Shown: piece after piece, positions 36,408 through 45,861 of the stretch
Layout of the letters: each line of letters begins with the position of its first letter
Position numbering within the stretch: position 1 is the stretch's first letter
Virus record (IMG/VR): IMGVR_UViG_3300028888_000001
DNA length: 64,000 nt
Direction: 5' to 3' (one strand)
From: a virus
Lineage: Duplodnaviria; Caudoviricetes
Position numbers and translations under genes: made by a program
Notes under the pieces: generated by a model
The model's database searches: none
The model's input: only the letters and a program-made list of their open reading frames with translations
Told to the model about the DNA's origin: nothing

Positions 36408-38936
36408 TTATTGATAGATCGCTGAATAATTTATTATTTTTTCTTCTACAAATTCAGACGATTCTTCAACATAATCTATATCAAATGTTACATGCTTTGG
36501 GCCTCCTATACGGACTAAATGGATATTTTTATTAGTTCTATCTATTACAACAATATCAAATGCTTGTTCTGTTATTGTACCCTTGGTGCGATCAAAACCC
36601 ATAAGATCTGCATTGCCTTGAGAATCTACCCATGGAACACAATTATCTTCTGTAATTATAATAAATGGAACGCCGCCTGGAGAAGTCCAAGCCCCATCGC
36701 TATGAGTATGCCCACTAAAAGATGCGATTACTTTTTTATTTTGATTATTTGAATTGAACGTATCAACAATTCCCCATAATTTAATCGTATTAGAATTTGA
36801 TGTGCTTATAACTCCAAGCCCATTACCAGTGGTCAATAATACTGCATGAGAAAATATTATTATTTCCCATCCATCATCAACATCCATTGCAACATTTTCA
36901 AGCCAACTCCATTGATCTGCAGTCATTCCTCCAGGTGTTATTAAATTATCATTTTCATCATAATAGTATGGATTAAACCAATTAAGCATAATATATCTTA
37001 TTTTTTGTTGATAATTATTAACGTAATAGTACTGATATTTAGCATCTCCGTAAACTTTATCTTGTTCATCATTTTGATCCATAGAATACATTATAAATGC
37101 TTCATTTATTTCATTACCGCCAGTATAAAACCACTCATGATTCCCCATAGCATGATAATATTTACCAGGAAAATATTTTTTAATATCGCTATAACATAAA
37201 GTAGCATCTCTAGCTCTATCAACATCATCCCCAGTATTAAAAAGTTTACGAATATATGTATTATTATAAATATAATTTAATAATTTAGGAGAATTATGTC
37301 CTCCTGCTCTATTATAATGCATATCCGATATCCAAGCAAAACAATCACCTGTGGAAATATTATTTTGAATAAGCTCGTTAATTCTAGATATTTTATTATC
37401 TAAATAATCATTTTCAAAATAATACTCTGGAATTTCTACATTGGATTCAGAATTACTTTTTAGTAAATCTGCTTTTTGCATTCTATCATATAAAGTTTTT
37501 GGATCTACGTAGTCAGATACATCTTTATCTGCAATATAACCAGTAAAAGTTTTGCTTTTTTCAATTAATATATTTCTAGGAACTATTTTAGTCCAATCAT
37601 CATTATTTGCTAAATACGTCATAAATGTTATATATGCCGTATTTTCAAAAGTAGTAAATTGAAATATGCCATTTGTTTGATTATTATATCTAGCAATATC
37701 TGTTCCGCTAAAATCATTTTTAACTATAGTTTTATTACTATCAAACTGTATTATATAAACGCGATAATTCAAATCTTCATCATATTCATAATAAAATACA
37801 TAATCAGTGCTAGGCTCAACTGGTATAAACTCTCTAACAGCTGAATTATTTTGAGCATCGGTATTGGCTTTTGATACGAATTTTCCGTTATTAGTACCAC
37901 CATTTCTATGACCTTGTTCAAATAATAATGAATCATCCCATAAATTTTTTGATTTGCTTGCAATTAAGAAATTGCTTAATTTATTATTGATCCCTTCTAA
38001 TTCATTTCTTTGACAATAATTTAACTTAACTTCTTTGTATTCGCCCTTGTAAAATTTTAAATCATATTTTTCTAGAATAGGATCTGTAATAATTTTATTA
38101 TTAATCGTCTGATTTGAGGGAAATGATAAAATAATTTTTGCATAAGCACATTCTGAATCCGTTGTTAAAGTAAAATAATTAATTGCATTAACGACAGTGT
38201 ACTGAGCACGTTTAATAAATGTGTAATCAGATTTATACTGAGCAAGCATAATATAGGAAGCATCATTACATTGTATAGTATATAAAGTATTTGGATCGAC
38301 TGGTATGTACTGTGAACTTCTAACATTACTTGAACGCGCCTCAAATTCTCCAGTACTAATTATATTGCCGGATTCAAAGTCTGGTATTTCTATATATTCT
38401 AATTCCGGATAATATCCAATTTCAGTTTTAGTGATTATTTCCTTATCGTATTTGGTAACCACATCATCATTTAAGACATACTTATTTAAATTATCATTGT
38501 TAATATTTTCATCGACTTCATATAATTTAACGTTTGTAAACTGGTATGTTTCACCAGCATACTCTTGTTGAGCTCTTATTGGATAAAAGCCAAACCTAAT
38601 ATAATTAAAATTTTCTATATCGCCAATAATGTTATTTGATATATATACGATATCGTCTGTATTAAAATAATAGTTATTATGAGTCCCATCAAGATATTGT
38701 ACCATAATATAGCCTAAAAGATCATCTGTTTTATATCCATTATAATTATCAAATGTTAAATAATATCCATATTTGTTAATATTATCATATGGTATCTGGT
38801 TGGCAAATAAATAAAAACCAAAACCACCATTTGTTACATTTATTTCTACTGTATCCATTTCTATAATAATTTTACCGTTTGAATTATTGAATACATTATT
38901 ATAATTTTCTTCTAAATCCACCAAATCGTTAGAAAG
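36408..38936 (-). CDS. Cassette A: beta-rich repeats plus C-terminal calcineurin-like metallophosphoesterase; headless, begins at the LSND site
   Basis: Motifs SDMH, TGDDVD, GNHE, FSH and GHTH. The frame reads CTT TCT AAC GAT (LSND) from 38936. No RBS. Confidence 0.8.
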   Translation of the reverse strand, partial: LSNDLVDLEENYNNVFNNSNGKIIIEMDTVEINVTNGGFGFYLFANQIPYDNINKYGYYLTFDNYNGYKTDDLLGYIMVQYLDGTHNNYYFNTDDIVYISNNIIGDIENFNYIRFGFYPIRAQQEYAGETYQFTNVKLYEVDENINNDNLNKYVLNDDVVTKYDKEIITKTEIGYYPELEYIEIPDFESGNIISTGEFEARSSNVRSSQYIPVDPNTLYTIQCNDASYIMLAQYKSDYTFIKRAQYTVVNAINYFTLTTDSECAYAKIILSFPSNQTINNKIITDPILEKYDLKFYKGEYKEVKLNYCQRNELEGINNKLSNFLIASKSKNLWDDSLLFEQGHRNGGTNNGKFVSKANTDAQNNSAVREFIPVEPSTDYVFYYEYDEDLNYRVYIIQFDSNKTIVKNDFSGTDIARYNNQTNGIFQFTTFENTAYITFMTYLANNDDWTKIVPRNILIEKSKTFTGYIADKDVSDYVDPKTLYDRMQKADLLKSNSESNVEIPEYYFENDYLDNKISRINELIQNNISTGDCFAWISDMHYNRAGGHNSPKLLNYIYNNTYIRKLFNTGDDVDRARDATLCYSDIKKYFPGKYYHAMGNHEWFYTGGNEINEAFIMYSMDQNDEQDKVYGDAKYQYYYVNNYQQKIRYIMLNWFNPYYYDENDNLITPGGMTADQWSWLENVAMDVDDGWEIIIFSHAVLLTTGNGLGVISTSNSNTIKLWGIVDTFNSNNQNKKVIASFSGHTHSDGAWTSPGGVPFIIITEDNCVPWVDSQGNADLMGFDRTKGTITEQAFDIVVIDRTNKNIHLVRIGGPKHVTFDIDYVEESSEFVEEKIINYSAIYQ

Positions 38937-39008
38937 ATCAAATGAAAAATACGTTATTAATCGAAAAATAATAGAATTAGGCGTAAGCCTAATTCACTTT
39001 CTAACGAT
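38925..39008. repeat. 84-bp element copy 1: 12-bp inverted sites flanking a hairpin (putative recombination sites)
   Basis: ATCGTTAGAAAG (38925-38936) ... GAATTAGGC-gtaa-GCCTAATTC (38974-38995) ... CTTTCTAACGAT (38997-39008). 82/84 identical to 45778-45861. Confidence 0.95.
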
Positions 39009-45810: not shown

Positions 45811-45861
45811 TAATCAAAAAATAATAGAATTAGGCGTAAGCCTAATTCACTTTCTAACGAT
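45778..45861. repeat. 84-bp element copy 2
   Basis: ATCGTTAGAAAG (45778-45789) ... same hairpin ... CTTTCTAACGAT (45850-45861). Confidence 0.95.

Follow-up and report, generated by a model that had tools for sequence, protein, structure and literature searches.

The 84-bp element and its core sites

What is an 84-bp sequence doing that stands twice, almost unchanged, between long reading frames of a jumbo-phage genome? The sequence lies in the IMG/VR virus record IMGVR_UViG_3300028888_000001 (313,331 bp), of which we analysed a stretch of 64,000 nucleotides, the minus strand of positions 9541-73540 (hereafter the window). The two copies (window 38925-39008 and 45778-45861) share the layout ATCGTTAGAAAG, 60-bp spacer, CTTTCTAACGAT, i.e., a 12-mer and its inverted counterpart across the spacer, and differ at two positions (T at 38955 versus C at 45808, and G at 38963 versus A at 45816), which agrees in coordinates and bases with a preliminary description of this locus. 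Judging from the sites, frames and recombinase genes described below, the element is probably (we would put it at about 0.7) a double-site linker, lying between silent cassettes, of a genome-wide tail-fibre shufflon. Its parts in the window, where cassettes A to D are the reading frames headed by the four 12-mers, are as follows:

38925-38936, minus strand: core site 1L (CTTTCTAACGAT on the minus strand), in-frame L-S-N-D junction of cassette A (842-aa frame; genome site 34605, plus)
38937-38996, minus strand: spacer copy 1, 60 bp, haplotype II (ATA ACG, C in the T-run), with a predicted terminator and in-frame stops for both flanking cassettes
38974-38995, minus strand: terminator-like hairpin of copy 1, nine pairs, TTAC loop, then TATTATTTTT; points into cassette A (terminator scan and fold)
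38997-39008, plus strand: core site 1R, L-S-N-D junction of cassette B (752-aa frame; genome site 34533, minus)
45778-45789, minus strand: core site 2L, exact 12-mer, junction of cassette C
45790-45849, minus strand: spacer copy 2, 60 bp, haplotype I (TGA-TTA-ATG ACG), with its ATG at 45810-45808
45827-45848, minus strand: terminator-like hairpin of copy 2; points into cassette C (terminator scan and fold)
45850-45861, plus strand: core site 2R, exact 12-mer, junction of cassette D

Across the whole 313,331-bp genome the core 12-mer CTTTCTAACGAT occurs exactly 14 times (0.07 expected from base composition), including the four sites of the window. Seven copies lie on the plus and seven on the minus strand, in strict alternation and with non-conserved flanks, and together they form six 84-bp elements (starting at genome positions 27680, 34533, 126719, 266879, 272829 and 296339) and one distant pair, 279280 (minus) and 284430 (plus), standing 5.1 kb apart. 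The exact 12-mer is used by 14 of the 16 LSND tetrapeptides in long open reading frames (ORFs), whereas codon usage predicts 1.6%, indicating that the site is conserved at the DNA level, beyond the protein. A search of the genome for degenerate extra sites placed every copy with one or two mismatches inside an ordinary long ORF. The junctions in the window read LSNDLVDLEE (A), LSNDIDDLEE (B), LSNDFEDLEN (D) and LSNDNTDNIE (C), so that the motif LSND-x-x-DLE is present at three of the four sites (A, B and D), as had been described; genome-wide, however, it is exact at only 3 of the 14 sites (one further context, LSNDFEDLKE, comes close), and the dyad to which it gives rise is thus a feature of some cassettes and not of the site. 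A single-site dyad search, meant to place the second recombinase arm, returned only a weak TCTAA-CGAT-TTAGA palindrome at some sites, the outer arms of the sites differ among three flank classes, and the inverted repeat between 279280 and 284430 reaches 22 nt (TTACTGAA + 12-mer + TT).

An assembly artefact was ruled out as the source of the duplicated element, because its six copies have unique flanks and each is shorter than the 127-bp assembly overlap. The 'direct terminal repeat' at the ends of the genome record is itself exactly 127 bp long; it looks less like a physical terminal repeat than like the k-mer overlap that an assembler leaves in a circular assembly, and the start point of the record is therefore probably arbitrary. 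Near-identical DNA to the window was not found in the phage collection. Exact-word scans with the element gave 28 matches in IMG/VR, all of them single chance 16-mers without the hairpin, and no match in the JGI metagenomes (the window's own record was possibly masked in both scans); no Rfam family matched the element, and the window contains no tRNA genes.

One constant part and fourteen tips

A single site in the genome, 279280, has an upstream part, namely the 391-aa constant N-terminus of a fibre-like protein whose whole gene encodes 1116 aa. The constant region that the preliminary description presumed to lie elsewhere is therefore located, about 245 kb away in the genome and outside the window. 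It ends in ...AADAKVTGDQLTE, directly followed by LSND, which does not support the suggestion that the short TYFSFD frame of the spacer copies its end. The 1116-aa gene is the last of a three-gene fibre operon, upstream of which stand AACA-N6-TAA and AAGGAG; the former, a candidate late-promoter word, is found at most 120 nt upstream of 23% of ORFs as against 2.75% of random positions. Included in the 5.1-kb linker are the late-promoter word, the constant N-terminus of 391 aa and, ahead of it, two fibre genes. The same linker also contains a 282-aa ORF (genome 282628-283476; L009 8629-9477, plus strand) without a Pfam or NCBIfam family, which is transcribed away from the fibre operon and is separated by two terminators from the silent cassette at genome 284430.

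All 14 sites open, in the frame of L-S-N-D, ORFs of 506-1033 aa, in which the first ATG lies up to 268 codons further on. Upstream of the site the frames extend for 3-19 codons before a stop, except for the 391 codons at genome 279280. The cassettes look like complete gene ends in which only the head is missing, and the 14 tips, mutually unrelated or distantly related, are of the following kinds:

Calcineurin-like metallophosphoesterase: window cassettes B and D and the expressed tip; cassette A by similarity to the expressed tip
GDSL/SGNH hydrolase: genome 126719 (minus), 272829 (minus) and 284430 (plus); window cassette C, judged from homologues
Glycerophosphodiester phosphodiesterase (GDPD): genome 126791 (plus) and 296411 (plus)
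Beta-helix, below the Pfam cut-off: genome 272901 (plus)
No domain family found: three cassettes

These start-less frames could be an evolutionary relic, with the 12-mer as a hot spot of tip exchange, the cassettes as internally started genes or decaying remnants, and the recombinases serving some other end. Gene callers do start cassette B at its first ATG, which gives a protein of 642 aa, the first repeat unit of cassette D starts at its first ATG, a single arrangement was assembled, and phages are known to trade fibre tips through ordinary recombination. Yet the 13 start-less cassettes stay open for up to 268 codons before an ATG while about 8% stop codons are expected from composition, a persistence that requires selection, and the 14 sites are all identical in DNA, whereas the unused partner site of a relative (see below) has drifted at three positions. 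Moreover, the recombinases are intact, duplicated and both adjoin cassettes, and the strict alternation of orientation is what an inversion-only system keeps. On balance, we regard a relic as quite unlikely.

Exchange at the junction can be followed in other phages. A search for longer proteins containing the constant part recovered three informative proteins (P0122-P0124). P0123 and P0124, both from metagenomes, are identical at 484 of 496 positions (97.6%) of their constant parts, carry unrelated tips and break exactly between E and LSND, and P0122 combines a constant part 88% identical to that of this phage with a different GDSL-type tip after ELSND. These protein sequences show that fibre tips are exchanged at the LSND junction between very close relatives, and the pair P0123 and P0124 lends indirect support to inversion. 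Close relatives of P0124 were not confirmed in IMG/VR, and when fused forms of cassettes B and C were sought in other assemblies, the enzyme domains alone were shared and the cassette head occurred in no relative.

Recombinases and related layouts

The genome encodes two intact tyrosine recombinases of 341 aa that share 83% identity, with a cassette directly upstream of each. They match PF00589 (92.7 and 87.4 bits) and PF13495 and consist of a SAM-like core-binding domain and a catalytic domain; across 19 relatives the catalytic R, K, H, R and H never vary, and the Y is kept in at least 90%. The two proteins come nearest to XerA, XerC and XerD and stay under every NCBIfam cut-off. No serine recombinase (PF00239) was matched in the whole genome, while the same search was positive in 13 of 14 control genomes, and no close relatives of the recombinases were confirmed in IMG/VR. 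Convergent with recombinase 2 lies a gene for a 199-aa helix-turn-helix protein of the Cro/CI type (genome 269309-269908; L010 811-1410, plus strand). Nothing of the kind adjoins the other recombinase, and the protein is a candidate for regulating the switch or assisting in it.

Homologous layouts accompany related recombinases. The IMG/VR record L047 (57,527 bp), with a recombinase 40% identical, contains a two-cassette fibre inverton with 27-nt inverted repeats 3.5 kb apart and the recombinase adjoining; the repeats lie within the fibre gene at the homologous motif ...AADAKAVGDQLSQLSTKI. The same region (L047 6350-9928) also holds an inner 193-nt inverted repeat with 77% complementarity. In L049 and L050 (recombinases 66-67% identical) the identical 12-mer stands ahead of frames of 804 and 582 aa, and L050 has an 81-bp double element, in which a 57-bp spacer separates the exact site from a partner site with drift at three positions; this partner heads a 658-aa frame. 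A near-site in L049 proved not to be a cassette, a 14-mer inverted repeat in L041/L042 was dismissed as chance, and no fibre homologue was found in the 249-kb and 120-kb relatives (L040, L042).

Size and inverted ends of the element resemble both a miniature inverted-repeat transposable element (MITE) with 12-bp terminal inverted repeats and the attC site of integrons, an imperfect inverted repeat of 57-141 bp that precedes promoter-less cassettes and is used, as a single-stranded hairpin, by the tyrosine recombinase IntI. A mobile or folded-DNA site of this kind would also fit the strong single-strand fold of the element and the scores of 180 and 170.5 bits, below the cut-off of 220, that the two recombinases reach on a model named 'site-specific tyrosine recombinase/integron integrase'. 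However, in the whole 313 kb the element and its hairpin (six copies) are confined to gaps between head-to-head cassettes, the flanks show neither target-site duplication nor direct repeat, and the same 12-mer is paired over 5.1 kb at the expression site, as are the L047 repeats over 3.5 kb, where no fold-back is needed. The likeness to an integron core seen in the preliminary description dissolves on closer comparison: GTTAGAA deviates from GTTRRRY at the final position, and where attC reads RYYYAAC ... GTTRRRY the element has GTTAGAA ... TTCTAAC, so that first and last positions fail and the order of the words is reversed. On integron-integrase models the two recombinases stay below the cut-offs (TIGR02249: 64.1 and 60.4 bits, cut-off 265; NF011946: 35 and 25 bits, cut-off 435). 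Integron cassettes are whole genes, whereas those of this phage are the ends of genes joined in frame, and the sites also serve as distant pairs. We consider a mobile or folded-DNA site most improbable.

The spacer

If the 12-mers are the sites, what does the spacer between them contribute? It contains a hairpin with a 9-bp stem, whose loop is GTAA or, read on the minus strand, TTAC; on that strand the T-rich TATTATTTTT comes next, and the terminator scan found the hairpin in both copies, in line with its earlier description as terminator-like. RNA folds of the element have z-scores of -6 to -8.6, partly due to the inverted 12-mers themselves. About 130 hairpin-plus-T-tail sites in the genome match the spacer hairpin in build, several with the identical tail TATTATTTTTTG, and from this resemblance the hairpin is predicted to be an intrinsic (rho-independent) terminator of the phage's ordinary type. 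The terminators of this phage are uniform (stems of 8-11 pairs, often CCnnAGGG...CCCTnnGG, with GNRA-type loops such as GCAA, GAAA or GTAA and T-rich tails), and many of the roughly 130 can be read on both strands (e.g., window 36333-36358 and 41351-41374). The spacer also holds in-frame stops in both reading directions. The silent cassette at genome 284430, the only silent one without an 84-bp element, likewise has a terminator upstream that points into it, and the end of the 5.1-kb linker facing it resembles the leader side of the spacer (hairpin, tail ATTATTTTTTTG, about 20 nt, site). In L050 the spacer has a 10-pair hairpin of different sequence at the same position and in the same orientation, with a similar T-rich tail, and this retention of the layout points to a structural role of the hairpin. 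Of the two functions that the preliminary description offered for the spacer, the insulation of silent cassettes is thus supported by the common build of the terminators, the terminator ahead of the cassette at 284430 and the stops in both directions.

The other proposal, a micro-inverton that hands a leader to one ORF of a pair, starts from a short frame, (M/I)-TYFSFD, which reads into the left-facing LSND and begins on the minus strand with ATG in copy 2 (45810-45808) and ATA in copy 1 (38957-38955); this ATG/ATA difference is indeed one of the two base differences between the copies. The spacer would then be a mini expression site in which the ATG of haplotype I or III starts M-(T)YFSFD-LSND-tip as a free enzyme, ATA means off, and a flip, either of the spacer itself or through re-orientation by larger inversions, chooses the cassette. 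Genome-wide, each of the six copies has the leader in the reading frame of LSND; the spacers vary at three positions only, giving three haplotypes (TGA..ATG ACG; CGA..ATA ACG; TGA..ATA ATG), and every variable position makes or breaks an in-frame TGA or ATG of the leader frame, one copy having its ATG shifted by one codon (ATA ATG) and not lost. The ATG-led cassettes are all of the SGNH/GDSL type (3/3), and the spacers, 95-100% identical, occur in both orientations (three one way and three the other), an outcome that large inversions spanning a linker would yield as well.

Against such a start site, the spacer contains no Shine-Dalgarno word (present at 76% of the phage's ORFs and at 7% of random positions) and no late-promoter word, so that the TYFSFD leader is probably untranslated. 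A terminator of standard build precedes the leader ATG by about 20 nt, and the matching stretch in L050 (NYFT-YYND) has no ATG. Any inversion at the site would give the leader to another cassette, and a fixed link between leader and SGNH tip would not last. Matches in a sigma-70-type promoter scan were no commoner than in shuffled sequence and are thus uninformative. For efficient Cre recombination a minimum of 82 bp from site to site has been reported (PMC11260471), and by this analogy alone a flip of 60 bp is sterically unlikely. A mini expression site is therefore unlikely in our estimation, and the leader with its ATG/ATA difference is, on these sequence features, most likely not used for translation, although the leader ATG may have a role.

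Segments and proposed mechanism

The 14 sites make up seven linkers (six of 84 bp and one of 5.1 kb), each with the minus site on the left and the plus site on the right, and a cassette points inward at each end of every one of the seven segments between them. The sites form no compact locus, being dispersed at genome 27.7, 34.5, 126.7, 266.9, 272.8, 279.3/284.4 and 296.3 kb, and the segments have the following lengths:

S1: 6,769 bp, window 39009-45777, between the inverted sites 1R and 2L; cassettes B and C and ORF X
S2: 92,102 bp
S3: 140,076 bp
S4: 5,866 bp
S5: 6,367 bp
S6: 11,897 bp
S7: about 44.5 kb, spanning the arbitrary record ends

In the shufflon that we propose, each inverted 12-mer would serve the Xer-like tyrosine recombinases of this phage as a core recombination site and would double as the L-S-N-D codons heading an outward-facing tip that has neither promoter nor start codon. 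Recombination between any two oppositely oriented sites would invert the intervening DNA, thereby placing a new tip behind the constant part and parking the old one behind a linker. Promoter and constant part would sit in one linker, the other six being 60-bp 'empty' linkers, whose spacer would keep the two sites apart, would probably supply their outer, non-conserved arms and, by an ordinary terminator and in-frame stops, would block transcription and translation into the parked tips. An inversion between any plus and any minus site preserves the strict alternation of orientations, and this matches the alternation observed. What the sequences show are the 12-mers with their frames and cassettes, the constant part with its promoter word, the terminators, the recombinases and the homologous layouts in relatives; that inversion occurs, which recombinase acts and where the strands cross we infer. 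By the geometry of its sites and cassettes S1 is a predicted invertible unit.

Taken to its full extent, such a system would be a 'whole-genome shufflon' of seven invertible segments, in which a change of tip routinely flips 6-140 kb of the jumbo-phage chromosome with the 84-bp double site as the joint. We give this extension slightly less than an even chance. A single change of tip would turn round as much as 45% of an otherwise ordinary lytic-phage chromosome, including its RNA polymerase and structural genes, and the ATG-bearing linkers may in addition yield the adjacent SGNH-type tip as a free enzyme.

Several points weigh against a shufflon with the element as its linker. The cassettes at genome 27-35 kb and 126 kb would need inversions of at least 92 kb, for which no phage precedent is known, and the exchange seen between P0123 and P0124 could be evolutionary and not a programmed switch. 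A single arrangement was assembled, as one contig, and no inversion isomer of this genome was found among the assemblies; the full-length fibre and the ATG-led cassette C are each recorded on two contigs (313,331 and 313,345 bp), so that both assemblies appear alike in arrangement at those two places. Despite unrelated cassettes the six spacers keep 95-100% identity, which the insulator role alone does not explain, and the terminator is one-directional, leaving 6 of the 12 linker-flanked cassettes unshielded. Finally, the three variable spacer positions all touch a stop or start codon of the leader, a hint that the leader may matter, and the shared SGNH/GDSL type of the three ATG-led cassettes has a probability of about 1% by chance, though counted after the fact.

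Cassettes of the window

The window carries four cassettes and, within segment S1, one further reading frame:

36408-38936, minus strand: cassette A, silent tip, 842 aa, no start codon at its head, PHROG tail-protein match
38997-41255, plus strand: cassette B, silent tip, 752 aa, calcineurin-like metallophosphoesterase, first in-frame ATG 110 codons past LSND
41379-42848, minus strand: ORF X, 489 aa, own ATG, same orientation as cassette C, no Pfam or PHROG family
42907-45789, minus strand: cassette C, 960-aa tip from LSND, internal repeats, SGNH/GDSL-type C-terminus (from homologues)
45850-48096, plus strand: cassette D, silent tip, 748 aa, three repeats followed by a metallophosphoesterase domain

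The C-terminal part of cassette A is 35% identical to the expressed tip of the metallophosphoesterase type, and the C-terminal enzyme domain of cassette B is common at the ends of long predicted proteins in public genomes and metagenomes. Terminators follow the 3' ends of cassette A (36333-36358) and cassette B (41351-41374). Cassette C, the only window cassette with an ATG ahead of its frame (45810-45808), shows direct repeats spaced about 921-924 nt apart (window 43900-45350, minus strand; 63 nt at 87% and 33 nt at 79%), which indicate duplicated modules of about 300 aa. In cassette D (window 45946-47200, plus strand) three copies of a unit of about 130-150 aa (LEQGNIQ...ARxR...YxxKDYD; 61-77% DNA identity) precede the phosphoesterase and may be carbohydrate-binding. 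The Atlas clusters with a name that come nearest to ORF X are baseplate proteins (GpP/gp44-like, late control D), which serves as a lead only; ORF X would invert along with S1.

Comparison with known systems and significance

The R64/IncI shufflon joins alternative tips to the pilus adhesin PilV by multiple inversion, catalysed by the tyrosine recombinase Rci at sfx sites. These sites are asymmetric, with only one side conserved, partial ORFs point inward from the segment ends, and four contiguous segments within about 2 kb share single sites. The jumbo phage resembles R64 in multiple inversion (as proposed here), in a constant N-terminus joined to alternative C-termini, in inward-pointing partial ORFs and in non-conserved outer arms, but differs in segments of about 6-140 kb that include most essential phage genes, and in double sites with a spacer between neighbours. 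In the Rin shufflon of Bifidobacterium prophages an armless XerD-like recombinase serves a constant part (Rc), start-less variable parts (Rv) and an 11-bp asymmetric site, TTCCCTAACCC (Mavrich et al. 2018, PMC6109161). Compared by description, both phages encode an armless tyrosine recombinase of the XerD-like kind beside the cassettes and have one constant N-terminal part and several start-less C-terminal parts, each variable part being headed by a short asymmetric repeat, and TTCCCTAACCC shares CTAAC with the 12-mer. Rin, however, is one compact locus of a temperate siphophage with few, small tips, whereas here 14 tips of 0.5-1 kaa include several enzyme types, and the sites are spread over the whole 313-kb genome, back to back in terminator-holding 84-bp linkers, with two recombinase paralogues.

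In the Gin, Cin, Pin and Min systems (Mu, P1, e14 and p15B) inversion swaps the C-terminus of a tail fibre behind a constant part and changes the host range, Min of p15B being a multi-site version (PMC6109161). These systems use serine invertases and an enhancer, unlike the present phage, which has no serine recombinase, and their variable parts lie inside a small invertible segment, whereas here the constant part lies inside the 5.1-kb linker and the tips outside it. Of the features of the R64 and Rin kind, this phage has a tyrosine recombinase with the cassettes, short asymmetric sites in both directions, and a constant part with start-less parts in frame; a compact cassette locus of that kind is absent from this genome, in which the segments measure 5.9-140 kb. 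The element would belong to a variant of the known Rin/R64-type shufflons that differs in the number, size and enzymatic variety of its tips, in its genome-wide spread and in its terminator-spaced double site, and a full-text literature search found no report of such a shufflon in a jumbo phage.

Known tail-fibre switches are small and local and choose among two to a handful of tips, whereas this phage appears to hold 14 enzyme tips of at least four recognised kinds for one fibre. For annotation it matters that gene callers cut the cassettes to their first ATG or call a false leader of seven codons. If the switch is active, it would demonstrate site-specific inversion at the scale of a whole phage genome and would offer a natural compact part (a 12-bp core and a terminator spacer) for multiplexed inversion designs; it would also suggest why some jumbo phages hold many start-less 'orphan' enzyme genes.

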